Counted from the stretch's first letter, positions 4,800-41,036 are shown. The stretch is 64,000 nucleotides of DNA from Labilithrix sp. (GCA_019637105.1 JAHBWF010000005.1:29611-93610), one strand, 5' to 3'. The notes: generated by a model not told the origin, from the letters alone. Numbers and translations are program-made.

Positions 4800-4914
4800 G
4801 GACCTCCTCCTTCCGGGCTCTTAGGTAAGCGAACCGCAGGTCGAAGATGGGTGGTTGGGGCGGCCCGAGTTCCGGTAGTCTCGGTTTTCCCCAGTCAACG
4901 TTGCCGCTCGGAAG

Positions 4915-16900: not shown

Positions 16901-17094
16901 CGCTCCGTCAGATCACGATGCTCAAGGTCCCCGCGCCGCTGCCGAAGGCGGTCGCCTACCAGCACCTCGGCGAGATCGCCCGCCAGCAGGGCGACAACCG
17001 ACGCGCGATGATGCTGCTGAAGCGCGCGATCGACGACGATCCGTCGCTCGACGACGCCCGCGCCCTGCTCGAGCAGCTCCAGGCCGAGGGCTGA
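4915..17094 (+). CDS. Giant cytoplasmic TPR/alpha-solenoid protein (4059 aa), similar in size and type to AgmK/GltI
   Basis: Single 12.2-kb ORF with G/C-ending codons. Dozens of TPR-like helical pairs (e.g. AFEAFEQALGIDPADDEL, AIGAYRRAVADDPTDREA, YARALAHDPTNAPLL). No signal peptide. Confidence 0.9.
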   Translation: MGPSPRQSRANIPSFEAKLENEEEVLDSIVSALSKNALDAAIWDELHDAAVKHDRVSELAFAYESAAQSRKLKTFLPAVQAELFFRAATFFGDVLGDEFGATTYLERALGAFPGHVGAFERIDAQLTRTDDNKKLAELCVQTSAHHARPDQIAILKRAAHLFERASLEDKAIETFQQLVRLDPADEELRNALEARFVRANRYRDVARMFEQALAADPPPPEEEAARIRQKLIEVFANQLKEPERAMPHVEALLESDPANAEARRVAHRLLESKGLAARAAAALSAGATTTEERARYLGIELEHTRGPRRRDVLRRIGVLKQDELDDTQGAFEAFEQALGIDPADDELRQRYMSLGIHLKGPLEVARTFARVSTVAKDAGVRSRITAEMGDLLLRGGDTKRARTTLAGVLSAPSADPGAVLTAARALSSVYESEGDVRNLVEVLQRIGELSPLEGEKQLANERIAEICTNELGDVDRAIGAWRRLVDSPARARALEALEPLYEAREQWIDLSFVLEERAKDAAADPAAARALSYRAAEVLTTKAKDVGSASEAWRQMIAAYGPARDVYAQWLPLLEQQRLWPELAEALTKDAELAPEEERPLVLARLGNVYLQRTRDTDAAIDAFKRALDLDAAEKTSRGTLEKLLLAAEHRLAASAVLEPIYRGEQNAQGLLRVLDIRASSSPIVQDRLAALEEAARVAESVSKDKTIEVVARGLAESVESQEPIGPWLERFTRAGEGIDPKRRAAFLGKALGDRPIESRELLGLAVLVGEESYAAGDVAAALAAYRRALAFEPSSTDLIARVDQLLQEQGNPEERVALYRAALERGADPARRRQLLHSIGTIERYELMNPTAAIGAYRRAVADDPTDREANSALVELYTETEAWDELCDLLEDYLAHATSPEETRAARAQLAQVATAHGQGDRGALHAGALLNDPNLGEPELDLVEHVATTLSDKVLLRAVLERRVRESEEPQKQVECLERLATLAQDSGDASHAVERLRQAADVAQGMGDAAAAVALYGRLRAIAPRDEHATGQLVDLHERAGSWEAVPPLYSVLLELATDTLSRVALLRRLSRTLADQLGDLERAFNAAKSALALAPEDGDALSDASSLAIRTGRTAELAAAIDEALAATTTAPEATRAELTLAKARVLATQEATWGEAAAAFRAVLEDTSDEAIQAAASQAFTELLRAMPRSQAKTRDVRWLHGWRVDHAPADQRARALLAWAEAEELELGHEQTALELYKKVLEIDESELDALSAVSRLSLAHGDVEGALAALMTRRAASEGDAKNALDVQIATILVDRPGRADEALDRIAGVLENTPQDAAAIELAARLLGDHEVAERAAKVLETSLDAVDDPDQKIKVFDHLIARPGAGGSAPRRELYERYLDTLAELERPDAAYAVALRAVRALPAEQSLWDRAEQIARQLSSAEPLADTYEAVLRLEVAGANGASLAELARAANEPPSDDALQQTRLAKADAIELGQRAVAFYEEWYEDSDRVVRVLERLLEIEPEDTWAFDRLKLIFDSKERWDDLFALYDRAAASADKDRKFELLEEAAQIAKDFANHAQRAIRYFEQLLELRPGNVRLSSALERLYERHGCHRELITLRGMRLLSLPHDEAQKERSRIATLWLDELNDASSALIVVEDIVVNQNLEVPEGAEAQVIDVTPLLERVLATAPRNADIRETVPPPPDGRRDSYVPTAPKRGLVRQRAAALLKERYAVPGKEADLARVLEVELEVVKSVKERIRRHHQIAGLHAQLGNDEAALEHFVQLVLLEPEVASHRQELAAIAARIGRFDRLAEVLVSAADDAHDDALKVELLMSAGDVAADEIGDIERAIELFFRVLAVSPIADAALLEACRHVEPLLEKADRRADRLDVLERLAILEQDADVKWRVLGEAARLAMGLEEDDRAIWAWEGRLETRPGDPEALDGLAFLFEKAERWRPLIDTLDKRARRDDRDAGQRREDRIRVAQIQSEKLEATEEAIETWRDVEATFGHSEDGTRALAGLYRLTKRWEELAELLGGAAARAATPADKADTLRELGDVQREELGQIALAIASYELSLTTEPRNEGSRSGLRSLIKRSEHRAEVVRVLLAAYVAADDWKLILDITEHRLSATHDTPGQIAVLMEAARISEDRADDADAAFTLVRRALLLDPSQDQTVAEIFRLADKTRAWRPLADALRECIDGQGDAAWARALRFRMGEVLEARLDEPRPALDAYVHVADQDPGDLESAKAVIRVAGKTSRWDAAARALVEATRARDALERDLVEAVEDAAQAAAGWDAVTFALASLIHDGGGLSPGLARDLEDAIAVWHRDRRGDPDAAEAAYARALAHDPTNAPLLAELAKLQRRARGRPLVDSLLRLSQTTGGDLDLLGEAAEVAVNSVGDRALAKSIFDRLLKLAAERWLGATEPNVLTSGTPDAPEHYVDRATRELVRIYGDDGDHDKVVQLLTDTAHLPWKTEKARALRHEAARVAVDKLGAADRAIAIYLALIEEDPHDAEAVSRVVALYEAADRRTELLDLKRRLVGTARDVGARLELRLEVAALEDGLDSVPRAIDALRENLGESARHDATVKMLAAILQRERRVEELEALLASQAQLGEDAGDKSASADFFWRAAEVAEKQMKDPARAIAHLRRVVALEERPPAYDALARLSTDTRAYDDAAGFLDRLRELTDGPARAAVTLRLADALVSASRKPEARERLESEIARDPEADSVRVRLAETYRAAQDWPALAVLLTEGAHHAPDKATRLARLREAAELHRARTNEPDKAIPLLEQASDLSPDDNAVKLALADALGAASRFEEARTLLRTLVEAFGGRRPKERAPVHYHLARLDLAVGDRARALVELDAATRIDPANPEILQALAELARDDGQLERAERSYRALLTVLRRQEDATDDAAITRSEALFELAQIATRQGESDRAKEILESAFELALESAVEARRLEGALRRAGDHVNLARALGARLERGGAEDEAALRTELGGLYDRHLDKKDEALEMILRAIDLEPANEAAHDAAFRLAGATGKMASYETRVRDLAEAKADSDGDLAGMLYLRLARIAESEAKEDREVAALYEKAVAARPEDRELLSALAGVYERLGDDAGQARVLGMRVELDTAAGGASPDALYRLAQLRFRSGDVDAGCDAFELAFEADPDADRAEELLRAAADAHPSAERIVDVYERLARAPGRERSLVDALVRRWSLPGAGVDPMKEAVEIAEKLEDAGLAESLLRRFLERERPRGMSDEEYREGRVWALALLAWRCEESGRVREAAVLKREAAEIAEPEAARRFLFEVAGLASGPLDDLRLASSIYEELHEKEPQDRDAWELLLDVYRRLDDFSKLVALVARIVEFVDDVGERSKLRLERVKVQMQKLKLSDDDAAEELRDIVDEDPAQVDAALLLVNIYEKSGREDDLADLLARQLDGAKDRQDAEAVGSLSRRLGQLLEKRDRSQARDVYYAALDWDPQARAILLALERLHDEDADIEARSDVMERRLAIEHGDEAEALALSLHDTRRALEDNEGALRSLELGFRGAPRSMQLRDRLEIVYRDTNEYGKLAELFTLDARGRQDAKEKSARLREAAQIYSAELSNPEEAAKVLREARAADPSDALLLIELVDTLSAAGELRGAVDELTSALNALDPDAALRPDLVGRRALARSRLGEMDGALEDFEEAVAKGKHDLRAYFAEHLGKMALQAAGRGDVATWRSYRLRIAGLRLDIGDVEEARNVLTELLKTDSKDKATLRAIAHVDELEGRWDTASATYRRLVGLEDAEGIVSAALKLLETCEKAGRLADARGGLERARMAAPDDAELRERLAWLYEQLGALKELAELVLEEARAAGDVAPRFEGLVRAGQLFLEAAADPNQTQQLDNTAAIAPLEEAHALRPSDLDCAALLSDAYVAGGRIDEAQELLLRTIGTFKGRRARELSALYHRLARIAEILGDRATELQHLTTALDMDAQNGVVASELAYLAMETQNLDVAQRALRQITMLKVPAPLPKAVAYQHLGEIARQQGDNRRAMMLLKRAIDDDPSLDDARALLEQLQAEG

Positions 17095-20387: not shown

Positions 20388-22919
20388 TCAGGCCACGTTG
20401 TGGCGCGCCTGGCGCTCGGCCATCGCGCCGATGTCCTCGGCGTCCGTGCTCGTCCCGAGCAGGCGCATCGTCGCCGTCGTCTCGCGCCCCGTGTCCTGAT
20501 CGCGCGCGCGTACGTTCAGGATGCCGTCGGCGTCGAGCTCGAACGTGACGGCGATCTTCACCTCGCCGCGGCGCGCGCGGCGGAGCCCGGAGAGATCGAG
20601 ATCGCCGAGCCGGGTGTTCGCCGCGAAGCGCGACGACTCGCCCTGGGCGACGCGGATCGACACCACCGTCTGGCCGTCGCTCGCCGTCAGGAACGTGCGC
20701 GTCTTCTCGCACGGCACGGGGGAGTTCGCGGGGATGAGGACGTCGGCGTACCCCCCCGCGGTCTCGACGCCGAGGCTCAGCGGCGTCACGTCGATCAAGA
20801 GCGGCGTCGACGCCGACGTGGTGATCGCGCTGCCCTGCTGGAAGCGCGCGGGCGAGGCCACCGGCCCGAGGTCGAGCTCGAGCTCCTGAGAGCGCTGGTG
20901 GCTCGCCACGAGCGCGCTGATCCCGAACGAATTCACCGCGCGCCCCGCCGGCGGTCCCGACGGCAGCGCGAGGTCGAGGTCCGGCGCCGCCGGCGGCCCC
21001 AAAGGCAGCTCGAGATCCAGATCCGGCGCCGCGACGATGTCGCGCGGACCGTAGTCGCCGAGGGTCCCCGGATCGTCGAGCTCGGGGATCCCGGGCAGCG
21101 CGAGGTCGGGCAGCGGCACCGCCGGCTGCGAGGGCGACGCGGAGCGACGCGCGGGCTTGGGTCCGGCGGGCGCCTCCTCGACCGGGCTCCGCGCGGGCAT
21201 CCCCTCGATCGGCCGCGTCGAGGCGCGCGCGCCGACGAGCGGCGCCGCGTGATCGGTGCCGCCGCGGCTCTGCGTCGGCGCTCCCGACGATCCGAACGCG
21301 ACGACCCGCGGCGCGGACGCGGGAGGAGCCGCGGGGACGCGCGGCGACGACGGAGGCAGGTCCGGCGCGGACGCGGGGACGCGCGGCGACGACGGGGCGC
21401 CCGCGGGACGCGGCGGCTCGATCGGCACCTTCTCCATCGGCAGCGTCGGCACGCGCCCGCGCACCGGCAGCGGGGGCGGCTTCTGCGGCGCGGGCGGCGG
21501 CGGCTTCGCCGGGGCCCTCGGCGCCTGCGCGACGCCCGGGACGTCGGAGAACGAGATCACCGCCGGAGCCTTGTTGAAGGAGAAGAACTCGGGGACGGGC
21601 GGCGGCGGCGCGGGCGGCGCGCCGAGGTTCGTCGGCAGCGCGGGCGCGCGCGGGACGTCGGCGGCCGCGAGCGTCGGGTCCGCGTCGGGCGGCCGCGTCG
21701 GCACCTGCTCGCCGCTCGGCTTCGGCTGCGCCCTCGCGAGCTGGTCGTGCGCGGAGCGCCGCTTGTGCGCCGCCTTCGAGCGGTTGAGCGCGTGCGCCTG
21801 GATCGCCGCGCCGAGCGCGACGACCTCGTCGGGGTTCACCTTGAGGTGAGGCTGCTGGCCGAAGAGCTCCTCGACCATGCGCGCCACGAGCGGGATGCGC
21901 GTCGAGCCGCCGACGAGGATGACGCGATCGAAGTCGCGGGGAGACAGGCCGATGATCTCGATCGACTGCCGCGCGACCGCGATCGTCCGCTCGACGAGCG
22001 GGCGCGTGAGCGCCTCGAGCTCGTCGCGCGTCATCACGAAGGGCATCGAGATCGGGTGGCCGCCTTCGTGGTATCCGACGCCGGAGATCTCGCGCTGCGC
22101 CTGGTAGGCGGTCGAGAGCTCCTTCTTGAGCTCCTCGGCCACGAAGCTCAGCCGCGCGGCGCTGCCGGGGTTGGTGCGCGGGTCGACGTTGAACCGCTTG
22201 ACGACGTCGAGCGCGATCTTGTCCGCGAGCACCCGGTCGACGTCGTCGCCGCCGAGCGCCGTGTCGCCCGCGGTGGCGAGCACCTCGAAGACGTTCCCCG
22301 TGAGGTCGAGCAACGTGACGTCGAACGTCCCGCCGCCGAGGTCGTAGACCCCGATCTTCTCGGCCTTCGAGATCGACTGCCCGTACGCGAGCGCGGCGGC
22401 AGTCGGCTCGTTGAGGATGCGCATGACCTCGAGGCCGGCGAGCTTCCCCGCGATCTTCGTCGAGGCGCGCTGGAGATCGTTGAAGTTCGCCGGGACCGTG
22501 ATGACCGCCCGGTCGACGGGCTGGCCGAGCGCGGCCTCGGCGATCGACTTCGCGCGGCGCAGCACGAACGCGCTGATCTCCGGCAGCGCGTACGCGACGT
22601 CGCGCGCGAGGATCATCGTGCTGTTCTTCGTCCCCTGCACGAGCTGGAACGGGAAGCGCGACTTCGCGGCCTGCACCTCGTCCGAGTCCCACGATCGCCC
22701 GAGCAGCGGCTTCACGGAGAAGATCGTGTTCTCGGGATCGATGAGCCGGCGCTCGCGCGCGGGCTCGCCGACGAGCACGGTGCTCGACGGGTGAAACGAC
22801 ACGACCGACGGGAGCAGACGCCGGCCCTGCTCGTCCTCGAGCGTGACGGCCACGCCGTCCACCACCGCCGCGACGACGGTGTTCGTGGTGCCGAGGTCGA
22901 TTCCGATCGCGACGCTCAT
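20388..22919 (-). CDS. dnaK: Atypical Hsp70/DnaK paralog with a long Pro-rich insertion and no helical lid
   Basis: GIDLGTTN, AVITVPANFND, RILNEPTAAALAYG, YDLGGGTFD, VILVGGSTRIP, NPDEVVALGAAIQ and LLIDVTPLSLGVET motifs. Confidence 0.9.
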   Translation of the reverse strand: MSVAIGIDLGTTNTVVAAVVDGVAVTLEDEQGRRLLPSVVSFHPSSTVLVGEPARERRLIDPENTIFSVKPLLGRSWDSDEVQAAKSRFPFQLVQGTKNSTMILARDVAYALPEISAFVLRRAKSIAEAALGQPVDRAVITVPANFNDLQRASTKIAGKLAGLEVMRILNEPTAAALAYGQSISKAEKIGVYDLGGGTFDVTLLDLTGNVFEVLATAGDTALGGDDVDRVLADKIALDVVKRFNVDPRTNPGSAARLSFVAEELKKELSTAYQAQREISGVGYHEGGHPISMPFVMTRDELEALTRPLVERTIAVARQSIEIIGLSPRDFDRVILVGGSTRIPLVARMVEELFGQQPHLKVNPDEVVALGAAIQAHALNRSKAAHKRRSAHDQLARAQPKPSGEQVPTRPPDADPTLAAADVPRAPALPTNLGAPPAPPPPVPEFFSFNKAPAVISFSDVPGVAQAPRAPAKPPPPAPQKPPPLPVRGRVPTLPMEKVPIEPPRPAGAPSSPRVPASAPDLPPSSPRVPAAPPASAPRVVAFGSSGAPTQSRGGTDHAAPLVGARASTRPIEGMPARSPVEEAPAGPKPARRSASPSQPAVPLPDLALPGIPELDDPGTLGDYGPRDIVAAPDLDLELPLGPPAAPDLDLALPSGPPAGRAVNSFGISALVASHQRSQELELDLGPVASPARFQQGSAITTSASTPLLIDVTPLSLGVETAGGYADVLIPANSPVPCEKTRTFLTASDGQTVVSIRVAQGESSRFAANTRLGDLDLSGLRRARRGEVKIAVTFELDADGILNVRARDQDTGRETTATMRLLGTSTDAEDIGAMAERQARHNVA

Positions 22920-23138
22920 ACCGTCCGGCCTGAAAGTCTAGAACACCGAACGGTCGCGGACCGAGTATTTCCGTCGAGCTCCGAGCAGCGCGAGGCGCTC
23001 CGACGATGACGGCTCGAGCCGACGCGAGGAGGCGCGACGAAGCGATCCGACGGCGATCGGCGGAGCGACGACGGGGGCAAAACGTTCGGCGCTCGAAATC
23101 GACGAAGCTCGAGCGAAATTCAGCTCCGCGTGGCGTGC

Positions 23139-29468: not shown

Positions 29469-30965
29469 ATGAGCGGCACCCGGCCTCGCGGCGAGGCGAA
29501 GAAGAGGGCTCCGGCCGGCGGGCGTCGCGGCCGCGGGCCGTCGGACGCGCGGCTGTACGGCGCGATCGGCGCGATCGTCGTCGGCCTCGCCGCCCTCGTC
29601 TGGTGGTCGCTCCCGGGCGATCGGCCGCCCGCCGCCGACGGCGCGGACGACGAACCGGCGCCGGCGACCGGGTCCGAGGGCACGGGCGCGCCGAGGGCCG
29701 GGCTCGTCCGCCCTCCGAAGGCGTCCGCCGAGCTCGCGGTCCTGACCGACGAGCCCGACGACGTCGTCCGGCGCCTCGCGTCGGTCGCCGAGATAGGAAA
29801 GCGCCTCGACGTGCGCCACTGCGGCGGCGCCTGCGACGCGGTGAAGAAGGCGATGGCGGACGAGGACGCCTTCGAGATCGACGTCCTCAAGGCCGAGGAC
29901 CTGATCCTGCCGCCGGAGGACACGATGGACACCGTCGCGCCCGGCCTGACGCCGTCCGAGCGCGTGAGCGCGCGGGCCAAGCGGACGGCCGTGGTGATCC
30001 GCACGCAGGGCGACCTCACGCCCGAGCAGGTGCCCGCCCGCGCCGTCTTCGCGGCGACCGCGGTGCTGGCCGAGGCGCTCACGGGCTTCGTCTACGACGA
30101 GGTGGCGCGGCGGATCGTGACCGCCCACGACGCCGCGAGCCACGCGATCGTCGTCGCGCTCGGGGAGCCGGCGTTCGCGCGCAAGCACATCGTCGTCCAG
30201 CTCTACCGGCAGGACGACGGCACCGCGCGGCTGCTCACGCTCGGCATGCAGCGCTTCGGGAGCCCCGACCTGTCGATCCGCGGCGCGAACATGGCGTCGG
30301 GGCCGATGCTGGCGGAGGTCATCAACGCGGCGGCGAGCCAGATCGCGCACGGCGCGAGCGGCTCGGCGATCACCGTGACGCTCGCCGACGTGGCGCGGGT
30401 GGTCGGGAAGACGCCGGCGGAGCTGAGCGCGAACGCGGACGGCGCCCGTCCGGTGGAGCTCGACGTGGTGACGCCGGAGCGCATCGAGGGCGATCCCGCC
30501 AACGAGATGGCCGAGCTCGTCCCGAAGGGCGGCGCGACGCGCGAGGCGTGGGACACGGTCGTCGCGACCCTGTTCGGCGTGACGCCGTCGACGACCGCGG
30601 CGGTCGACGATCCGGAGCTCGCCGGCGTCGCCGAGGACGCGCGGCGGAGCCTCCCGGCGGCGATCGAGCGGTTCGAGGCCGGAGAGGGCGAGCTCTTCGT
30701 CAAGGGGCCCTTCCCGATCCCCGAGGAGGCGCGCGTCGACGGCGGCGCCTCGACGGAGACGCTCTGGCTCGCGGCGGCGTCCTGCGACGCGCGACGCTGC
30801 ACCGGCGTCCTGTCGAACGAGCCTTCGTACGCGACGAACATCGCGCTCGGCAAGACGACCAGCGTGAAGCGGGACGAGGCCGTCGACTGGATGATCCATC
30901 GGCGCGACGGCGGCGTGGTCGGCGGCGAGTCGATCAAGGTGCTCAAGGCCCGCGCGCCGCGCTGA
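29469..30965 (+). CDS. Membrane-anchored protein with C-terminal DUF2314 (YegJ-like) domain
   Basis: N-terminal TM. C-terminal TETLWL...TGVLSNEPSYATNIALG...AVDWMIHRRDGGVVGGESIKVL matches the DUF2314 pattern as I recall it. Confidence 0.65.
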   Translation: MSGTRPRGEAKKRAPAGGRRGRGPSDARLYGAIGAIVVGLAALVWWSLPGDRPPAADGADDEPAPATGSEGTGAPRAGLVRPPKASAELAVLTDEPDDVVRRLASVAEIGKRLDVRHCGGACDAVKKAMADEDAFEIDVLKAEDLILPPEDTMDTVAPGLTPSERVSARAKRTAVVIRTQGDLTPEQVPARAVFAATAVLAEALTGFVYDEVARRIVTAHDAASHAIVVALGEPAFARKHIVVQLYRQDDGTARLLTLGMQRFGSPDLSIRGANMASGPMLAEVINAAASQIAHGASGSAITVTLADVARVVGKTPAELSANADGARPVELDVVTPERIEGDPANEMAELVPKGGATREAWDTVVATLFGVTPSTTAAVDDPELAGVAEDARRSLPAAIERFEAGEGELFVKGPFPIPEEARVDGGASTETLWLAAASCDARRCTGVLSNEPSYATNIALGKTTSVKRDEAVDWMIHRRDGGVVGGESIKVLKARAPR

Positions 30966-31061: not shown

Positions 31062-32543
31062 CTACCTCGCGCCGAGCGAGCGGAGCGCGAGGTTCGCGCG
31101 GCCGCGGATGTACGGCGCCAGATCGGCGTCCGCGGCCGCCGCGGTGAGCTGCGCGATCGCCGGCGCGCGCCCGTGTCGCGCGACCAGGCCGTCCGCGTCG
31201 AGCGCGTTGAGGCCGCAGAAGCCCGACGAGAGCTCGCGCTCGACCGGCGACAGGACGTCGCTCCCCGAGACGCGGAACGTGCGCTTGAACGACGGCGCCA
31301 TCGACCGCGCCGGCGCGCGGGGCGCGAAGGACATCGTGCTGCCGCCCCCCGCGTTGAACGCGCGGTAGATCGGCGAGCCGCGGTAGACGCGCTTCTGCGA
31401 GGGCGAGAGCGTGACCGGCCCGTCGATCGCGCCGGCGGCGAACATGATGTTCGTCCGATCGGGGCAGTCGAAGAGGTCGTCGCGCGAGATGCCCTCGCAG
31501 ACGGGCGTGTCGGAGAGCGGGTCGGAGCTCTGACCGTCGAACTCGGTCGTGTGGTTCAAGCCGAAGAAGTGCCCCGCCTCGTGGAGCATCGTGAGCACGT
31601 CCTGGTCGACCGAGTGCGACGTGGTGACGATGATCCCGGAGACGTTGCGCCCGAAGATCGTCGCGGCGCCCGGGATGCCCGGAGAGATGCCCGCGGCGAA
31701 CGGCTGCCCGCCCTCGCCGATGAGGTTCGTCAACAGGACGTGGAGCGCCTGCGTGCCGTCCTTCTGTCCGCTCGAGATCGAGAAGCCGCGCAGGAGCGCC
31801 TCGACGCCGTCGAGCTCGCGGTAGTCGCTGCTCTCTTCGCTGTAGACGACCTTGCCCTTTTCGATCCCGAGGAGGTTGGACGTCAACGCGAAGAACGTCT
31901 CGATGCGCTCCGAGACGTCGCGATCGTTCTCGGCGTCGGAGGCGTCGACGGTGCGGTTGCCGATCCGGAGGCCGCTCGGGACGTGGACGTAGAGGTCGAG
32001 CGCCCCGCCGTGGAACTCGCCGTCCCCGCTCGACTGGACGCGCACCTGCCCCTTGAGCTTCGGCTTGGCCGACGAGCCGTAGACGCCGAAGCGCACCTTC
32101 CACTTGCCGGCGAGATCCTTGGGGACGCCTTCGCCCTGGGGGACGCTCGCCGACGCGATCACGTCGAACGTCGCGATGCTCGTCTCCTTCGTGCCGCCCT
32201 TCGGCGTGTACGCGTCGTGAACGAGGTTGCCCTTCGGGTCCGTGATGCGCTGGATGCCGAAGGGACGGTTCGGATCGAAGTCGGCGACCTTCCCCTCGAC
32301 CGTGATGTTGAAGCCGAGCGCGCCCTCGGGGATCTCGAAGGAGACGTCCTTGCCCGCTTCGACCTCGCCGAGATCGATGACGAGCGGATCCGTCTTGGGC
32401 TCGGTGTCGATCGGCTCCTCCTCTTCTTCGTCCTCGGCGGGGACCTCGGCGGGCGGAGCGCTGTTCCTGATGATCTTCTTCTGGGTGCACGCCGGAAGGA
32501 CGGCGAGGAGCGAGCAAGCCGCGAGAGCGAGGAGCGAGCGCAT
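31062..32543 (-). CDS. Lipoprotein zinc metalloprotease (metzincin, M43/pappalysin-like)
   Basis: Lipobox LPAC; HEAGHFFGLNH (HExxHxxGxxH) and a downstream Met-turn TNIMF. Confidence 0.85.
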   Translation of the reverse strand: MRSLLALAACSLLAVLPACTQKKIIRNSAPPAEVPAEDEEEEEPIDTEPKTDPLVIDLGEVEAGKDVSFEIPEGALGFNITVEGKVADFDPNRPFGIQRITDPKGNLVHDAYTPKGGTKETSIATFDVIASASVPQGEGVPKDLAGKWKVRFGVYGSSAKPKLKGQVRVQSSGDGEFHGGALDLYVHVPSGLRIGNRTVDASDAENDRDVSERIETFFALTSNLLGIEKGKVVYSEESSDYRELDGVEALLRGFSISSGQKDGTQALHVLLTNLIGEGGQPFAAGISPGIPGAATIFGRNVSGIIVTTSHSVDQDVLTMLHEAGHFFGLNHTTEFDGQSSDPLSDTPVCEGISRDDLFDCPDRTNIMFAAGAIDGPVTLSPSQKRVYRGSPIYRAFNAGGGSTMSFAPRAPARSMAPSFKRTFRVSGSDVLSPVERELSSGFCGLNALDADGLVARHGRAPAIAQLTAAAADADLAPYIRGRANLALRSLGAR

Positions 32544-33597: not shown

Positions 33598-33963
33598 ATG
33601 ACGCGCGTGCTCGTGATCGACGGCTACGACCCGAGTCGCGACGCGTCGGCGCGAGCGCTGCGCGACGCGGGCTACGACGTGATCGCCCTCGAAGAAGAGG
33701 AAGCGGCGCTGGCGGCGCTGAAGCGGGGCGGGGCCGACGTCGTCCTCCTCGATCTGCCGCTCGCCGAGGCCGAAGAGGCGGCGAACGCGATCCGCGAGGC
33801 CACGGGGCGAGGAGCGCGCTCGCCGTCGATCATCGCGCTCGTCGACCCTTCGAGCTCCCGCCAACGGCGCGAAGCGGGACACGCCAGCGGGATCGACTAC
33901 TTCTTCCTCCGCCCCTGCCCGCCGCAGGAGATCGTCAAGCACCTGCTCCGGATGCGCCTCTAA
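33598..33963 (+). CDS. Single-domain receiver (CheY-like), probably atypical
   Basis: RVLVIDG, DVVLLDL, IIALV and GIDYFFLRP in receiver-domain order. Confidence 0.85.
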   Translation: MTRVLVIDGYDPSRDASARALRDAGYDVIALEEEEAALAALKRGGADVVLLDLPLAEAEEAANAIREATGRGARSPSIIALVDPSSSRQRREAGHASGIDYFFLRPCPPQEIVKHLLRMRL

Positions 33964-33995
33964 ATGACGCCCGCGCGCGATGACGCCCGCGCGCG
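33964..33995. repeat. Perfect 16-bp tandem duplication
   Basis: ATGACGCCCGCGCGCG twice, immediately after the receiver gene stop. Confidence 0.85.
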
Positions 33996-34082
33996 AGCTC
34001 GACCGTGCGCGCGGGCGCCTCCCCGCGGCGCGCTTCCGCGGACTTCGAGCTCGCCCGGCCTCTCGGGTATGCTGCCGGCGCC

Positions 34083-36809
34083 GTGTCCGACCGCCCTTCC
34101 CGCCCTCCTTCCCGCCCGCGGATGAGCTCCGACGCGCCGGGCGTTCCCAGGAACGTGCGCGTGAAGAAGCCCTCCGAGGACCTCGCCTTCGCCGATACCG
34201 TCACCGACTTCGCGGCGCGCTCCGGCGCACGGGGCCGACCGGGAGACGACGCCGAGGACGCCGAGGCCGGCGCGCGCGCGAAGGACACGCGACCGACGCT
34301 CCGCGAGCAGCTCCTCGAGGCCGAGCCCGTGGGGCGCGAGGCGTCGCGCGCGCGGCGGATCCTGCGCGGCGTCGAGAAGTGGGGCCTCCGCCTCGCGATC
34401 GCCGCGCTCGTCCTCTCCGCGCTGGCCGTCCTCGCGGGCTGGCTGCTCGTCCGCCACTACGAGGAGGGGCTGCCGAGCGTCGCCGAGCTCGAGCGCGGCT
34501 ACCGCCCGTCGCAGGTCACCCGGGTCCTCGCGCGCGACGGGACGACGATCGCCGAGCTCTTCACCGAGCGCCGGACCATCGTGCGCGTCGAGGAGCTGCC
34601 GCGCCACGTGACCACGGCGTTCATCGCCGCCGAGGACGCCAGCTTCTACGAGCACGAGGGCATCAACTACCTCGGCATCGCGCGCGCCGCCGTCGTGAAC
34701 CTCCGCGCCGGCCGGACGCGCCAGGGCGGCTCGACGATCACGCAGCAGGTCGTGAAGAACATCCTGCTCGAGTCGAACGAGCGGACCTACCGCCGCAAGA
34801 TGCGCGAGGCGCTGCTCGCGCGCCGCCTCGAGCAGGAGCTCTGCCCGTCGTGCGGCAACGACCAGCAGGGACGCGACAAGCGGAAGGACAAGATCCTCGA
34901 GCTCTATCTCAACCACATCTACCTCGGGCACGGCCGCTACGGCATCGAGGAGACCGCCGAGGACTGCTTCGGCAAGCCGGCGAGCAAGCTCACGATCGCC
35001 GAGGCGGCGATGCTCGCCGGCGTCCCCGCGGCCCCGGAGGCCTACAACCCCAAGCGCGACCTCACGAAGGCGCTCGCGCGGCGCGCGTTCGTGCTCGATC
35101 AGATGCGCGCCAAGCACTTCATCAACGACGCCGAGTACGAGGCGGCGAAGAACGAGGCCGTGCGGCTCGCCGCGACGCGCGAGGTCGACAGCGAGCTCGC
35201 CCCCGAGGCGGTGCAGATCGCGAAGAAGCTCCTCCTCGAGCTCGAGCCCGAGCGCGGGCCGCGCGGCGGCTTCACGATCACGACGACGATCGATCCGGCG
35301 CTCCAGCAGGCCGCGCGCAAGGCGCTGCGCGACAACCTCGGCGCGTACGACAAGCGGCACGGGCTGCTCGCGCCCATCAAGTCGTCCGCCGTCGCGCAGA
35401 AGGGCAAGGCGAAGCCGCCGAAGGACGCCCCGCCGTTCGAGGGAACGCCGAAGTTCGAGTCGCACAAGGTCCTCACCGGCGTCGTCACCAGCACCGACGA
35501 CGTCGCCGGGACCATCGACGTCCGCGTCGGGACCGTGCTCGGGTCGGTGAAGCTCTCCGACTACAAGCGCTACAACCCGCAGAACCTCCCGCCGAGCCAG
35601 TTCGCGGAGGTCGGCGCGCGCGTGCGCGTGAGCCTGCTCGCGCCGATCCCGAACGCCGTCGCGCAGGTCTCGCCCTCGGCCGAGAACGCGCCCGTCGCGA
35701 AGGTGCCGCTCCGCCTCGAGCTCGGTCCGGAGTCCGCGATCGTCGTGCTCGACGTCCGGACGCGCCACGTGCTCGCGATCGCCGGCAGCTACGAGGCGCA
35801 GAGCGGCGGGCTCGACCGCGCGACGCAGTCGCGACGCCAGCCGGGCTCGACCTTCAAGCCGATCGTCTACTCGTACGCGCTGCACTCGCGGCGCTACACG
35901 CCCGCCACGCTCGTCGACGTCACCCCGCGCGCCTACGCCGGCGGCTACAAGCCGGTGAACTACGAGGGCTGGACGGCGCCCGATCCGCTGCGTCTCCGCG
36001 AGGCGCTCGCGAACTCGGTCAACGTCGCGGCCGTCAACGTCCTCGAGGACGTCGGGCCGGCGAACGTCGTCGACTGGGCGAAGGCGCTCGGGATCGACTC
36101 GACGATGAAGCCCGATCTGTCGCTCGCGCTCGGCTCGTACGAGGTGCGTCCGATCGAGCTCGCCGGCGCCTACGCCACGTTCGCGGCCGGCGGCGTGTAC
36201 GAGGAGCCCCGCGTCGTGACGCGCATCGTGGGCCCGGACGGAAAGGACGTCGAGCTCAAGCCGGCGCCGCCGCCGCGCCGCGTGCTCGAGCCCGCCGAGG
36301 CCTTCTTGATCACGAGCATGCTCGAGAGCGTCGTCGACCGCGGGACGGGGCAGAAGGCGAAGTCGCTCGGGCGCCGCGTCGCCGGAAAGACGGGGACGAG
36401 CAACGAGGCCAAGGACACCTGGTTCGCCGGCTTCTCCCCGGAGATCGCGGCCGTCGCGTGGGTCGGCTACGACGACGCCAAGCCGCTCGGCTCGACCGAG
36501 ACGGGCGGCTCCACCGCCCTGCCGGCGTGGATCGCGGTGATGGACGCGGCGCACAAAGGCAAGCCGCGGGCCGAGTTCGCGCGTCCGCCCGGCGTCTCCA
36601 CCGTCGCGATCGACCCGAAGAGCGGCAAGCTGAAGGCGGAGGGCGCGGAAGGCGATACGATCGACGAGGTGTTCCTCGTGGGGACGGAGCCGACCGAGAC
36701 CGCCGAGCCGCCGCCCGCGGAGCCGGAGGCGGACGCCGCGGCGACGACGAGCCTCGCGCCCGAGGCCCCGCCGCCGCTGCCCGCGGCCGACGCGGGTGTC
36801 GACCCTTGA
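34083..36809 (+). CDS. mrcA: Class A penicillin-binding protein PBP1A (GT51 + OB-like insert + transpeptidase)
   Basis: AEDASFYEH, QGGSTITQQVVKN, RKMRE, ELYLN; transpeptidase SxxK (GSTFK), SxN (SVN) and KTG. Start set at GTG 34083, 9 nt after TATGCT; ATG 34122 is an alternative. Confidence 0.95.
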   Translation: MSDRPSRPPSRPRMSSDAPGVPRNVRVKKPSEDLAFADTVTDFAARSGARGRPGDDAEDAEAGARAKDTRPTLREQLLEAEPVGREASRARRILRGVEKWGLRLAIAALVLSALAVLAGWLLVRHYEEGLPSVAELERGYRPSQVTRVLARDGTTIAELFTERRTIVRVEELPRHVTTAFIAAEDASFYEHEGINYLGIARAAVVNLRAGRTRQGGSTITQQVVKNILLESNERTYRRKMREALLARRLEQELCPSCGNDQQGRDKRKDKILELYLNHIYLGHGRYGIEETAEDCFGKPASKLTIAEAAMLAGVPAAPEAYNPKRDLTKALARRAFVLDQMRAKHFINDAEYEAAKNEAVRLAATREVDSELAPEAVQIAKKLLLELEPERGPRGGFTITTTIDPALQQAARKALRDNLGAYDKRHGLLAPIKSSAVAQKGKAKPPKDAPPFEGTPKFESHKVLTGVVTSTDDVAGTIDVRVGTVLGSVKLSDYKRYNPQNLPPSQFAEVGARVRVSLLAPIPNAVAQVSPSAENAPVAKVPLRLELGPESAIVVLDVRTRHVLAIAGSYEAQSGGLDRATQSRRQPGSTFKPIVYSYALHSRRYTPATLVDVTPRAYAGGYKPVNYEGWTAPDPLRLREALANSVNVAAVNVLEDVGPANVVDWAKALGIDSTMKPDLSLALGSYEVRPIELAGAYATFAAGGVYEEPRVVTRIVGPDGKDVELKPAPPPRRVLEPAEAFLITSMLESVVDRGTGQKAKSLGRRVAGKTGTSNEAKDTWFAGFSPEIAAVAWVGYDDAKPLGSTETGGSTALPAWIAVMDAAHKGKPRAEFARPPGVSTVAIDPKSGKLKAEGAEGDTIDEVFLVGTEPTETAEPPPAEPEADAAATTSLAPEAPPPLPAADAGVDP

Positions 36810-38218
36810 CCCCGGCGCGAGCGCTCGCCCTCACGCTGGGGACGCTCGCGCTCGGGCTCGCCCCGCTCGCGCTCGCCGAGCCCGCGCCCGCCAAGCCTCC
36901 CGCGAAGCCGCCCGCGTCCGCGCCCCCTCCCGCGCCCCCGCCGCCGCCGGTCCACGCGAGCGCGATCGTCCACATCGCGACCGAGATCGCGAAGGGCCTC
37001 GGCGACGTGCCGCCGGGCGCGCTCGTCGCCGTCTCGCCGCTCGTCTCCGACGTCCCGGCGCCGAAGGCCGACGAGCTCGTCGTCCGCGTCGGCGCGCAGA
37101 TCGCCGGGCGCCTCGGCGTGGCGCAGGCGCACCCGCAGCCGGCCACCCTCGCCGCCGCGCGCGGCGTGTCGGGCCGGGCGGCGTCGCTCGTCTACGTGCA
37201 GCTCGAGATCGCGAAGGGCGAGCTCCGCGCGACCGCCGATCTCTACCCGGTGGTCTCGAACGGGTGGGAGCGCCTCAGGAACCCCGCGCCCGGTCCGCGC
37301 GCGCACGCGTTCGCCGGCGCGCCGCTCGACGCCGAGGTCCGGACGTTCCTGCAGCCGATCGTCCTCGAGCAGGCGAAGCTGCACAAGGCGAAGCACGAAG
37401 AGACCGACGTGCTCGCGATCGGCTGCGGCGACGTCGACTCGGACGGCGGCAACGAGATCATCCTCGCGACGCGCGCGCGGGTCGTGATGGGCAAGCTCCG
37501 CGGCGGCAAGCTCGCCGTCTACCGCGCGACGCCGTGGACCGAGCTCGCGTCGCGGGTGCCGGTGCCGATGCGCGAGCCGATCGCGAGCGTCGTCGTCCCG
37601 CGCGGCCACCGCGGCGAGCTGCTCGTCGGGATGACCGATCGCGGCGCGGTCGCGGTCGACGCGGCGCTCGTCACGCGCCGCCAGCTCACCGGCCTGCCGA
37701 TCCCCGGCGCGGACGGCGACGCGTGCGCCGCCGCGAGCCCGGAGGTCGGCGCGTTCGAGGGCAGCGGCGTCGCGTGCGCGCCGCCGGCGAAGGGCGAGCC
37801 GGCGCCCGTCCTCCCGCTCCCCGCGGCGCGCTTCGACGCGGTCGCGTCGCTCGACCTCGTCGGGAAGGACGGCGCGATCACGCAGGTCGTCGCGGCGCGC
37901 GAGCCGACGGGCAAGGTCCGGCTCCGCCGGAGCGACGCGAGCGGCAAATCGATGGAGGCGCCGATCGACGGCGCCGGGGCGCAGATCGCGCTGGCCGATC
38001 TCGACCTCGACGGCACCCCCGAGATCGCCTTCAGCGGCGACAACGCCGAGACCGACGTCGTCGCGGTCTGGAGCTGGCGCGCGGGGAGCGGGCTCGTCCA
38101 GCGCCTCCGCTACCCGACGAAGGAGCCGGTCCGCGCGATCGCCGCGTGCCCGCCGGAAGAGAAGGGCCTGCCCGCGCTCGTCGCCGTCGTCGGCGGCGAG
38201 GTGTGGCTCGTTCGCTGA
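36806..38218 (+). CDS. Secreted protein with FG-GAP/DxDxDG-type repeats
   Basis: TTG start overlaps the PBP1A stop (TTGA). Sec signal (ALALTLGTLALGLAPLALA), Pro-rich linker, GDVDSDGGNEI and ADLDLDGTPEI motifs. It is the 3' part of track ORF 33980..38218. Confidence 0.75.
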   Translation: MTPARALALTLGTLALGLAPLALAEPAPAKPPAKPPASAPPPAPPPPPVHASAIVHIATEIAKGLGDVPPGALVAVSPLVSDVPAPKADELVVRVGAQIAGRLGVAQAHPQPATLAAARGVSGRAASLVYVQLEIAKGELRATADLYPVVSNGWERLRNPAPGPRAHAFAGAPLDAEVRTFLQPIVLEQAKLHKAKHEETDVLAIGCGDVDSDGGNEIILATRARVVMGKLRGGKLAVYRATPWTELASRVPVPMREPIASVVVPRGHRGELLVGMTDRGAVAVDAALVTRRQLTGLPIPGADGDACAAASPEVGAFEGSGVACAPPAKGEPAPVLPLPAARFDAVASLDLVGKDGAITQVVAAREPTGKVRLRRSDASGKSMEAPIDGAGAQIALADLDLDGTPEIAFSGDNAETDVVAVWSWRAGSGLVQRLRYPTKEPVRAIAACPPEEKGLPALVAVVGGEVWLVR

Positions 38219-39543
38219 TGAAGCGGCGCGCGTTCCTCGCAGGCCTGGTCGCCGCGTCGGTCGCGCCGCGCGCCTCCGCCCGCGGGCGCGTCCCCGTCGG
38301 CGGCCGCGTCGCGATGCGCCTGCCGTGGCCGATCGGCGCGATCGATCCGCACCGCATCGACGATCCGCTCGCGGCGATCTTCGGCGAGGCGCTCTTCGAC
38401 ACGCTCTACGCGCAGGCGCCCGACGGGCAGATCGTCCCGTCGCTCGCCGAGGCCCAGCCCGAGCACGACGGCGCCAACCTCCGGGTGAAGCTGCGCGCGG
38501 GCCTGCGCACGGCGAGGGACCGACCGTTCGGGACCAAGGAGGCCGCGCAGTCGATCGCGCGCGCGCGCGCGTCGGGCGGTCGAGGGTGGCTCGCCGACAT
38601 CCCCGCCCCGCGCGACGACGGACGCGCGCTCGTCTTCGCCACCAAGGACGCGGCGCGGCTGACGCGCGCGCTCGCCTCGCCCATCGTCGCGATGGTCCCG
38701 TCCGGCTTCAGCCCGGACGCGCCCGACGGCACGGGGCCGTTCCGCTTCGGCGCGCGCGACGGCGCCCTCCTGCTCACGCGCAACCGCCTCGCGGCGCGCG
38801 GCCCGGCGTTCCTCGACGAGGTCGCCGTCCGCGCCGCGCCGAACGTCTCGGCCTCGCTCCTCGCGTTCGAGGGCGGCTCGGACGACGTCGGCTGGTTCGA
38901 GCGCGGTCTGCACGCCGTCCGCGCCGGCTCGAAGGCGTTCGACCACGGCGCGGTCGGCTGGGTCGTCCTCTTCACGGGCCGCGACGCCACCGCCTGGGAC
39001 GGCCCCGGGATCGCGCAGAGCGTCGCCGACGGCGTCCCCTACTCGCGGGTCGCGAACCTCCACCTCGGCGCGCCGTGGCCGGAGACGCCGGTTCAAGGGT
39101 GGGGCGGCCCGCCGGTGACGCTGATCGTGCGCGAGGACGCGCCGTGGATGATCGACGTCGCCAACGCGATCGCCGCGACGATCACGCGCCCGGGTCACGA
39201 GGTCACGGTGAAGCCCGTCTCCGGCGCCGACCTCGCGTCGCGCCGCGCGTCGCGCATGTTCGGCCTCGCCCTCGACGTCGTCCGGAGCGTCGGCAGCGGG
39301 AGCCTCGGCGCGATGGTCGCCCTGGCGACGGCGGACAACCCGACCCGCGCGCAGGAGATCATGCAGCACCCGCCGAAGCTCGGCGACGTCTCGGCGCGCA
39401 CGCTCACGCGGACGTTCCGCGCCGGCGTCATCGGCGAGATCCGCGTCGTGGGCGGGCGCGTCCCCGACCTCGTCCTCGCCCCGTCGGGCAACGGGTTCGG
39501 CTTCGACCTCGGCGCCTCCTACCGCGGCGCGAAGCGAGCGTGA
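38218..39543 (+). CDS. TAT-exported solute-binding protein, family 5-like (orphan)
   Basis: TGATG overlap with the upstream gene; MKRRAFLAG twin-arginine signal; IDPH...LFDTLY...IVPSLAE...LRAGL...PDGTGPFRF pattern of SBP_bac_5. Confidence 0.75.
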   Translation: MKRRAFLAGLVAASVAPRASARGRVPVGGRVAMRLPWPIGAIDPHRIDDPLAAIFGEALFDTLYAQAPDGQIVPSLAEAQPEHDGANLRVKLRAGLRTARDRPFGTKEAAQSIARARASGGRGWLADIPAPRDDGRALVFATKDAARLTRALASPIVAMVPSGFSPDAPDGTGPFRFGARDGALLLTRNRLAARGPAFLDEVAVRAAPNVSASLLAFEGGSDDVGWFERGLHAVRAGSKAFDHGAVGWVVLFTGRDATAWDGPGIAQSVADGVPYSRVANLHLGAPWPETPVQGWGGPPVTLIVREDAPWMIDVANAIAATITRPGHEVTVKPVSGADLASRRASRMFGLALDVVRSVGSGSLGAMVALATADNPTRAQEIMQHPPKLGDVSARTLTRTFRAGVIGEIRVVGGRVPDLVLAPSGNGFGFDLGASYRGAKRA

Positions 39544-39606
39544 CCGCGCCGACGCCGCAGCGCCTTCGGCGGCGACGACGACCGAATCCGCGCGGCCCCA
39601 CAGCAC

Positions 39607-39638
39607 GAAACGGAGCCGGGAGGTCCCGACTCCGTTTC
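39607..39638. terminator. Bidirectional terminator-like hairpin between convergent genes
   Basis: GAAACGGAG-C-CGGG-AGGT-CCCG-A-CTCCGTTTC stem-loop between the SBP gene and rplT. Confidence 0.6.
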
Positions 39639-39656
39639 CAGGGCGCGCGTCGGAGA

Positions 39657-40004
39657 CTAGCGCTTCGCGGCGGCGACGACCTTCGAGAAGGCCGCGGCGT
39701 CGACGATGGCGAGCTCGCTCAGGATCTTGCGGTCCAGGCCGATGTTCGCGCCCTTGAGGCCGTGCATCAGGCGCGAGTACGACGTGCCGTTGGTGCGCGC
39801 GGCGGCGTTGATGCGCGTGATCCAGAGGCGGCGGAAGTCGCGCTTCTTGCGGCGGCGGTGGGCGTAGGCGTAGACCCACGCCTTCATCACCACCTCTTTC
39901 GCGTACGCGAAGAGGCGCGAGCGGGCGCTGTGATAGCCCGAGGCGTGCTTCAGGATGCGGTTCTTGCGGCGGCGAGCTTTGAATCCACGTTTTGCGCGGG
40001 GCAT
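39657..40004 (-). CDS. rplT: 50S ribosomal protein L20
   Basis: MPRAKRG...[25 protein letters not shown]...[10 protein letters not shown]. Confidence 0.99.
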
Positions 40005-40514: not shown

Positions 40515-41036
40515 TCAGTGGCGTTGCGACACGGGCGTGGCGCCTTCGGCGGCGGCCTTCACGCGACCGTGCTGGCTCTCGACCATCACGGGCTCGTGCC
40601 GCTTGAAGAGCGCGCGCGCGGCCTCGAACGCGTACCGCAAGCCGCGGGCGCCGGTGTTGTCCCAGAACTCGGCGTCGGTCACGGTCACGCGGATCAGCAC
40701 GAGCTTCGGATCGTCCTTGCCTTCGGGGAACCAGACCCTCCACGTCGGCTTCCAGAGCTCGTGGATCTTCGCGCGATCCTCGACGAGCTCGGCGGTGCCG
40801 CTGAGCGCCACGAACTTCCGGCTCGACTGGAAGGTCGCCGAGACGCGCCCGTCGCGGCGGATCTCCTCCGACTTGGGCGCGGCCTGCGAGGTCGCGAACC
40901 AGAGCGTGTTCGCGCCCTCGATCGCGGCGACCGCCATCGGACGCGCGTGCTCGCGATCGCCGTGACGTGTGATGAGCATCGCCGTGTCGAACGACTCCAG
41001 GAGCTCTTTCAGATGCTGCTTCGTGCTCTCACCCAT
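40515..41036 (-). CDS. Pyridoxamine 5'-phosphate oxidase-like general stress protein (split-barrel FMN-binding)
   Basis: TAMLIT...HARPMAV...LWFAT...KSEEIRRDGRVSATF...FVALSGTA...WFPEGKDDPKLVLIRV...AEFWD. Confidence 0.9.
   Translation of the reverse strand: MGESTKQHLKELLESFDTAMLITRHGDREHARPMAVAAIEGANTLWFATSQAAPKSEEIRRDGRVSATFQSSRKFVALSGTAELVEDRAKIHELWKPTWRVWFPEGKDDPKLVLIRVTVTDAEFWDNTGARGLRYAFEAARALFKRHEPVMVESQHGRVKAAAEGATPVSQRH

Follow-up and report, generated by a model that had tools for sequence, protein, structure and literature searches.

To our knowledge, regulators of class A penicillin-binding proteins (aPBPs), the bifunctional synthases of peptidoglycan, are known in few lineages, mainly as the Lpo proteins of Gammaproteobacteria, and how these enzymes are controlled in most bacteria is an open question. 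Lpo proteins are outer-membrane lipoproteins, and their genes are usually unlinked to that of the PBP. Among solute-binding proteins (SBPs) of family 5, Escherichia coli MppA works through the OppBCDF permease, and LpqB, an accessory of the MtrAB system, carries a propeller-like domain. An orphan SBP can also work with an HpnN-like resistance-nodulation-division (RND) transporter, as in the BstA-BstB sterol shuttle of Methylococcus capsulatus (PMC10942540). Here, we describe a locus from Labilithrix sp. (GCA_019637105.1, JAHBWF010000005.1:29611-93610; this 64,000-nucleotide stretch is hereafter called the window), in which a gene for an aPBP of the PBP1A type is followed by genes for a Sec-exported FG-GAP-type protein (G2) and for a twin-arginine translocation (TAT)-exported protein with a family-5 solute-binding fold (G3). 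The locus is best read as a three-gene operon, possibly of four genes if the upstream receiver gene is included, in which the PBP is co-translated with a pair specific to Polyangiales. Because PBP1A is translationally coupled to a conserved and uncharacterized pair, G2-G3 is a reasonable candidate for a module of cell-wall control or sensing. A full-text literature search found no publication on this module.

The original prediction had described the three genes as a chain joined by stop/start overlaps, and this is borne out by the sequence: the stop codon of PBP1A overlaps the TTG start of G2 within the tetranucleotide TTGA, and the stop of G2 shares one base with the ATG of G3 in TGATG (Table 1). 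The TTG at 36806 is the sole start codon of G2 that yields an intact signal peptide, while either of two starts is possible for PBP1A. In a frame plot of G+C content at third codon positions, coding blocks on the + strand span 34111-36810, 36871-38220, and 38311-39630; these are contiguous and lie in three different frames. Sequencing runs that contain the locus derive from activated-sludge metagenomes. One of them, labelled metatranscriptomic ("RNA?"), contained 84% of the words of the locus, against 20% in the runs from the same sample marked "DNA?". Contigs of the metatranscriptomic-labelled run cover 33886-34860, 36674-37407, and 37384-39705, and therefore cross the gap between the receiver gene and PBP1A as well as both gene junctions, consistent with co-transcription. 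Separately, a variant with an 18-nt insertion at 33944 was observed in both metagenome and metatranscriptome contigs.

How widely this arrangement is conserved was examined with G2 as the anchor. An exhaustive HMMER search for the G2 family yielded 529 representatives (50% clustering), of which 191 scored below 1e-30; even at 30% identity, matches covered the full length. Members with a genus name belong to Labilithrix, Sorangium, Chondromyces, Polyangium, and Byssovorax, where they are annotated as hypothetical, FG-GAP, or VCBS proteins. For the analysis of gene neighborhoods, 128 related loci were collected: 41 from species-representative genomes, 80 from metagenomes (with a 14-sequence alignment as the query), and 7 by exact look-up. 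In 113 of these there was room downstream of G2, and it is on these that the following counts are based. G3 begins within 100 nt after G2 in 108 loci. In 100 of these the end of G2 and the start of G3 overlap, the shared stretch being 4 nt (60 loci), 11 nt (29), or 1 nt (10) long; the choice of start codons in the overlap count is biased toward nearby starts, the underlying observation being that a start bearing the twin-arginine motif lies at the G2 stop itself. These frequencies identify the G2-G3 pair as an ancient, near-invariant unit. Three proteins of the representative library that seem to fuse G2 with G3 (P0270, P0276, and P0281) were set aside, since the Arg-rich, out-of-frame stretches in them point to frameshifted gene calls. 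G2-G3 was confined to Polyangiales, and it is both older and wider in distribution than its link to PBP1A.

The history of that link is visible in a neighbor-joining tree built from 108 G2 sequences. Two major clades are resolved, one of which unites all loci linked to PBP1A, the basal and divergent L044 and L046 among them; the PBP1A-linked clade is thus monophyletic. Neighbors were counted for loci with a G2 that shares 44% identity or more with that of the window; these loci make up most of this clade. Here, PBP1A lies directly 5' of G2 in 45 of the 53 loci with room for it, and one or two genes intervene in three more. The 4-nt overlap between the PBP1A stop and the G2 start, followed by a signal-peptide-like N-terminus, was found in 27 relatives, down to 32% G2 identity, among them Labilithrix luteola DSM 27648 (L014) and the distant L046. 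Monophyly, adjacency, and the overlap together indicate that the triad is old and maintained and is no passing neighborhood, so that the conservation survey on which the original prediction depended came out in its favor. The divergent metagenome lineage L046 (297-4186; G2 32% identical) is peculiar in that it has the 4-nt PBP1A/G2 overlap but no G3 after G2.

In many relatives, the operon continues into a gene for a sensor kinase. Among 41 loci of the same identity range, a histidine kinase gene starts less than 200 nt after G3 in 22, and it is found further downstream in 6 more. The encoded proteins are about 555-600 aa long (e.g., L023:12647-14311); in each, two transmembrane segments flank a periplasmic stretch of about 230 aa, and HAMP, HisKA, and HATPase domains come after them. 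The kinase looks like the fourth member of an ancestral operon, and the full four-gene version is present in a cultured type strain, L. luteola DSM 27648. No homolog of the kinase was detected in the 64-kb window. The subclade to which the window belongs has lost the neighboring kinase; instead, a receiver gene is present 5' of PBP1A in the closest relatives only. This gene lies 120-160 nt from PBP1A on the same strand and was retained, in a tblastn search among the related loci, in L001, L002, L004, and L007 only; it may be an upstream, fourth member of the transcription unit. A further observation concerns PBP1A itself, whose cytoplasmic N-tail is unusually long; this tail and the stand-alone receiver encoded immediately 5' may be connected.

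The product of gene 1 is an aPBP of the PBP1A subfamily. It matches PF00912 (Transgly, 3.4e-58, residues 140-328) and PF00905 (Transpeptidase, 1.2e-37, residues 539-774), and passes the TIGR02074 model with 537.5 bits (cut-off 508.75). A long cytoplasmic N-tail is followed by a single transmembrane segment, LRLAIAALVLSALAVLAGWLLV, which precedes the glycosyltransferase domain, and then by an insert, the transpeptidase domain, and a Pro/Ala-rich C-tail. The nearest solved structure is that of Pseudomonas aeruginosa PBP1a (4OON). Residues 418-535 form an insert of about 117 aa that sits at the position of the OB/ODD domain of 4OON and did not align to it, and OB-domain families were absent among the Pfam matches at E≤1.

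G2 has all the features that had been noted from its sequence. A Sec signal peptide, MTPARALALTLGTLALGLAPLALA|EP, ends in the cleavage site ALA|EP and contains neither a Cys nor a lipobox; a Pro-rich linker, an alpha/beta N-domain (approximately residues 50-175), and a beta-rich C-terminal part of the FG-GAP type follow. Two DxDxDG motifs, GCGDVDSDGGNE and DLDLDGTPE, are present, and in 60 family members D398, D402, and G403 are invariant, with D209 and G214 nearly so. Of four Cys that the family conserves, two are invariant and two nearly so; together with the DxDxDG motifs, these residues are consistent with a folded periplasmic protein. The G2 of the window scores 21.3 bits with Pfam FG-GAP_3, under the cut-off of 26.9, yet FG-GAP models (PF13517 and PF01839) are matched by 58 of the 60 members, with a best E value of 2.3e-9. 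When a profile of G2 was compared with the PDB, the matches were confined to FG-GAP calcium loops, as in CRTAC1, PL11 lyases, and integrin alpha. An AlphaFold2 (AF2) model, in which the alpha/beta N-domain and the beta-rich C-terminal part are both seen, reached a predicted local distance difference test (pLDDT) score of 62, with values of about 57-84 in the N-domain and below 50 at gaps in residues 288-341; Foldseek searches of the PDB with this model retrieved only generic propellers (DDB1, LGI1, kaptin, paraoxonase, and integrin alpha) at template modeling (TM) scores of at most 0.31. For a closed propeller of seven blades, only about 280 residues are available, and low-confidence gaps occur in the model. 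G2 is likely a calcium-binding, propeller-like FG-GAP protein with an N-terminal alpha/beta domain.

A more specific proposal, namely that G2 adopts an LpoB/CsgG-like fold and acts as an activator or scaffold, gained no support from profile tests. In addition to the missing lipobox, Pfam LpoB (PF13036), TolB_N, and CsgG matched 0 of the 60 family members at E≤10, and hhalign gave the family a probability of 2% against E. coli LpoB, through the signal peptide only, and of 0.1% against TolB. By eye, a strand-loop-helix in the N-domain, LVAVSPLVSD...ELVVRVGAQIAGRL, recalls the start of TolB-N-like domains and may serve only as a lead.

G3 begins with MKRRAFLAGLVAASVAPRASA|RG, in which a twin-arginine motif, a hydrophobic region, and an AxA cleavage site make up a TAT signal. 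At least 90% of aligned homologs keep R3 and R4, and the twin-arginine signal assigned in the original prediction stands. Three methods place G3 in the family-5 solute-binding fold: it matches SBP_bac_5 (PF00496) with 39.2 bits (cut-off 32.4) over residues 71-222 only; a profile search of the PDB returned NikA-type proteins as best matches (E 1.6e-8, residues 43-230); and the top 50 Foldseek matches of a poor AF2 model (pLDDT 48.5) were all SBP5 proteins, over 380-480 columns at TM scores of about 0.35. The C-lobe is divergent, the N-lobe alone being alignable by sequence, and the protein falls about 60-100 aa short of the usual length of family-5 receptors. Against E. coli MppA, hhalign of the G3 alignment gave a probability of 33%, through N-lobe residues 56-224 only, and the nearest solved relatives are of the NikA type. 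The idea of an MppA-like muropeptide sensor, as which G3 had been proposed, is therefore left without specific support, and a muropeptide is one possible ligand.

The absence of an adjacent importer, noted in the original prediction, was confirmed. Neither the 64-kb window nor the 128 related loci (1.38 Mb) contain OppB or OppC homologs at E≤1e-3, and the window encodes one ABC ATPase alone, of the ABC-F type, at 58.7-60.6 kb, about 19 kb away. G3 homologs thus do not sit with oligopeptide permeases, a second check that the original prediction survives, and G3 is a true orphan that lacks a transporter partner. Its annotation as a "peptide/nickel transport SBP" is probably misleading; G2 is annotated as "hypothetical".

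In the other major clade, the pair is found alone or coupled to an HpnN/MmpL-like RND transporter, the latter in Sorangium and Chondromyces. A gene for an MMPL/RND protein of 818-820 aa lies directly 5' of G2 in Chondromyces crocatus (L127:7548-10004), where the two overlap by 4 nt, and in Sorangium (L128:7528-9990), where it ends 10 nt before G2; four metagenome loci (L056, L057, L061, and L062) also have an RND gene 5' of G2. The protein matches the HAE3, HpnN, and BstA models, each below its cut-off (for BstA, 114 bits vs 1400). No RND gene was detected in the 64-kb window, and across the PBP1A-linked clade and most of the other clade, the 8-10 kb around G2-G3 are likewise free of RND genes. 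In L127 and L128, which represent cultured Polyangiaceae, murF and def are located upstream, and the Sorangium locus also has glmS, a further kinase gene, and a gene for an M23 peptidase in the vicinity. The remaining loci of this clade have housekeeping or generic envelope genes as neighbors (among them ThiD, a histidine phosphatase, HhH-GPD, and a TPR protein) and give no functional lead; these neighbors also include a secreted protein that, judged by eye only, is perhaps an outer-membrane barrel.

The features of the locus are collected in Table 1. The window has a G+C content of 67-76%, and the nearest named relatives of its proteins are from Labilithrix sp. (Labilitrichaceae, Polyangiales, Myxococcota). 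In this genome, the convergent rplT sets the downstream limit of the unit. The original prediction had the unit end at a hairpin facing rplT; the hairpin and the convergent gene are both there, although the folding energy of -23.4 kcal/mol corresponds to a z-score of only -1.76 and a simple terminator scan did not call a hairpin 3' of G3. It is likely a bidirectional terminator, if a statistically weak one. Upstream of rplT, the gene usually expected is infC, for translation initiation factor IF-3; it was not identified by Pfam scans, the positions of rpmI (L35) and infC not having been properly checked. A pyridoxamine-phosphate-oxidase-like gene (40515-41036, - strand) lies about 0.5 kb upstream of rplT. 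The left flank encodes a DUF2314 protein (29469-30965, + strand) and a reprolysin-like metalloprotease (31062-32543, - strand); these two and gltB form a left flank that is kept in the closest relatives of the window only. Elsewhere in the window are a single open reading frame of 4071 codons for a giant, TPR-repeat-rich protein (4879-17091, + strand) and a gene for an 848-aa Hsp70-family protein with a long extension past its ATPase domain (20388-22934, - strand).

Table 1. Features of the PBP1A-G2-G3 locus, in window coordinates, and related loci that carry the histidine kinase gene
Feature	Position	Strand	Basis or remark
Receiver (single-domain response regulator, 121 aa)	33598..33963	+	Pfam Response_reg, 32 bits
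Tandem repeat, 2 x 16-nt unit ATGACGCCCGCGCGCG	33964..33995	.	Repeat search; perfect copies, between receiver gene and PBP1A
PBP1A (class A PBP)	34083..36809 (GTG start; alternative ATG 34122)	+	Pfam and NCBIfam
TTGA overlap, G2 start TTG / PBP1A stop TGA	36806..36809	+	Sequence
G2 (470 aa, Sec-exported, FG-GAP-type)	36806..38218	+	Translation, alignments, AF2 model
TGATG overlap, one base common to G2 stop TGA and G3 start ATG	38216..38220	+	Sequence
G3 (441 aa, twin-arginine, family-5 solute-binding fold)	38218..39543	+	Pfam PF00496, PDB profile, Foldseek
Hairpin between convergent G3 and rplT	39607..39638	.	RNA fold
rplT (ribosomal protein L20), convergent with G3	39657..40004	-	Pfam Ribosomal_L20, 6.8e-42
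Histidine kinase gene in related loci	L010-L012, L014, L018, L021, L023-L027, L029-L031, L033, L035-L041, L099, L104-L108, L114, L120-L122		

Gene structure and conservation are firm. As to function, we infer with a probability of roughly 40% that G2 and G3 are a pair with an accessory or sensing task in the periplasm, in partnership with PBP1A and, in relatives, also with the kinase. G2 and G3 would act together, probably as a complex, and G3 would bind a small periplasmic ligand, possibly a peptide-like one, and would not be the receptor of an ABC importer. In the PBP1A-linked clade, the pair may act on, or report about, the periplasmic side of PBP1A, and in most relatives a signal might pass from the pair to the adjacent histidine kinase. 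Several observations weigh against this interpretation. In the other clade, 38 of 41 loci lack PBP1A beside G2-G3, and Sorangium and Chondromyces have an RND/MMPL transporter, not PBP1A, as the translationally coupled partner of the pair; both arrangements weaken the claim that the pair serves PBP1A only, and they raise an alternative of the BstA-BstB type. Furthermore, G2 resembles no known aPBP regulator in sequence or profile (by Pfam and hhalign), the C-lobe of G3 is unalignable to peptide-binding SBPs, confidence in the structure models is low to moderate (pLDDT 62 for G2 and 48 for G3), and the RNA support is at the contig level only, with DNA carry-over possible. A more ambitious version would make G2-G3 a new type of two-protein periplasmic regulator, composed of an SBP-fold ligand sensor and a calcium-binding propeller adaptor, that docks on periplasmic domains of envelope machines in the inner membrane, so as to control or report on the PBP and feed the kinase in the Labilithrix branch and to serve an RND exporter in Sorangium and Chondromyces; we hold this to be an unlikely scenario.

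The RND-linked loci suggest another role, in which G2-G3 is the periplasmic arm of trafficking of envelope lipids or lipid-linked precursors, G3 being a repurposed SBP chaperone like BstB for BstA, and the adjacency of PBP1A a secondary operon arrangement that entails no direct regulation of the synthase. The position of the RND gene directly 5' of the pair in C. crocatus, Sorangium, and the four metagenome loci, the sub-threshold resemblance of its product to HAE3, HpnN, and BstA, and the published precedent of an RND transporter with an orphan SBP (PMC10942540) all speak for such a shuttle. On the other hand, the RND gene is missing from the neighborhood of the pair in the PBP1A-linked clade and in most of the other clade, and G3 belongs to PF00496, in contrast to BstB, which belongs to PF12974. 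Moreover, the PBP1A/G2 overlap is kept across a deep clade, which argues against an accidental neighbor. We consider this trafficking role improbable. Another possibility is that G3, with G2 as its accessory, is mainly a periplasmic co-sensor of the adjacent histidine kinase and that PBP1A is a co-regulated output or neighbor and not a binding partner. A kinase gene close behind G3 in 22 of 41 loci and further downstream in 6, a kinase architecture with a sizable periplasmic segment ahead of HAMP, HisKA, and HATPase, and a G3 that lacks a transporter partner would all be accounted for. However, PBP1A-G2-G3 remains intact in the window and its subclade without a nearby kinase, the other major clade keeps G2-G3 without one, and no cognate response regulator is conserved beside the cluster; we likewise consider a role chiefly in kinase sensing improbable. 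Least probable of all, in our estimation, is that G3 serves, as an ordinary receptor, an ABC importer whose genes lie elsewhere, just as MppA uses OppBCDF, with G2 an unrelated secreted protein and the gene order meaningless. Membership in PF00496, closest solved relatives among NikA, DppA, and OppA-type receptors, and the existence of orphan SBPs that borrow a permease, such as MppA, are compatible with this explanation, but the G2/G3 overlap persists in 100 of 113 loci in a family that diverges to 30% identity, no permease occurs in the 128 contexts, and G3 is about 60-100 aa short with an unalignable C-lobe.

The locus is a concrete candidate for aPBP control: in a deep monophyletic group, an aPBP gene is coupled to genes for two uncharacterized periplasmic proteins and usually to a kinase gene as well. 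With an RND transporter as the partner of the same pair in Sorangium and Chondromyces, G2-G3 may be a periplasmic adaptor that can be reused, and a further case of an SBP fold recruited away from ABC transport. Even if there were no functional link to PBP1A, a conserved gene pair specific to Polyangiales is now defined.

Comparison with described systems places these proteins among several known designs. G2 resembles TolB in size and order, with a signal peptide, an alpha/beta N-domain of about 130 aa, and a beta-propeller; unlike TolB, it shows no TolB_N or PD40 Pfam matches, its repeats are of the FG-GAP type with DxDxDG motifs, and no tol-pal genes are adjacent. An extracytoplasmic accessory encoded beside a sensor kinase is also familiar from LpqB with MtrAB (MtrB), YycH/YycI with WalRK, LuxP with LuxQ, and TorT with TorS, although no homology to these was found and the window has no adjacent kinase. 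With MppA and the other family-5 proteins (OppA, DppA, and NikA), G3 shares the fold and, with MppA, the lack of permease genes of its own; it differs in that its N-lobe alone aligns, with NikA-type proteins nearest, and in being shorter, TAT-exported, invariably coupled to G2, and surrounded by permease-free neighborhoods. The BstA-BstB-BstC system (PMC10942540) likewise combines an HpnN-like RND transporter with a repurposed orphan SBP, and the sister clade has RND-G2-G3; however, BstB is a phosphonate-binding PF12974 protein and G3 a PF00496 protein, BstC is TatT-like whereas G2 is an FG-GAP protein, and the window is free of RND genes. A functional parallel may also be found in the Lpo/CpoB proteins (LpoA for PBP1A, LpoB for PBP1B, LpoP, and CpoB), which are non-cytoplasmic accessories dedicated to a bifunctional peptidoglycan synthase, a role that is only proposed here; in addition, the PBP of this locus is of the PBP1A type, with an insert in the place of the domain to which LpoA binds. 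G2 departs from these proteins in that it lacks a lipobox, showed no similarity to LpoB or TolB in sequence or profile comparisons, and is always accompanied by an SBP-fold partner. Should the pair prove to be a two-protein regulator, no aPBP control module beyond the Lpo/CpoB paradigm would have been described before it, and it would be co-operonic with its synthase.

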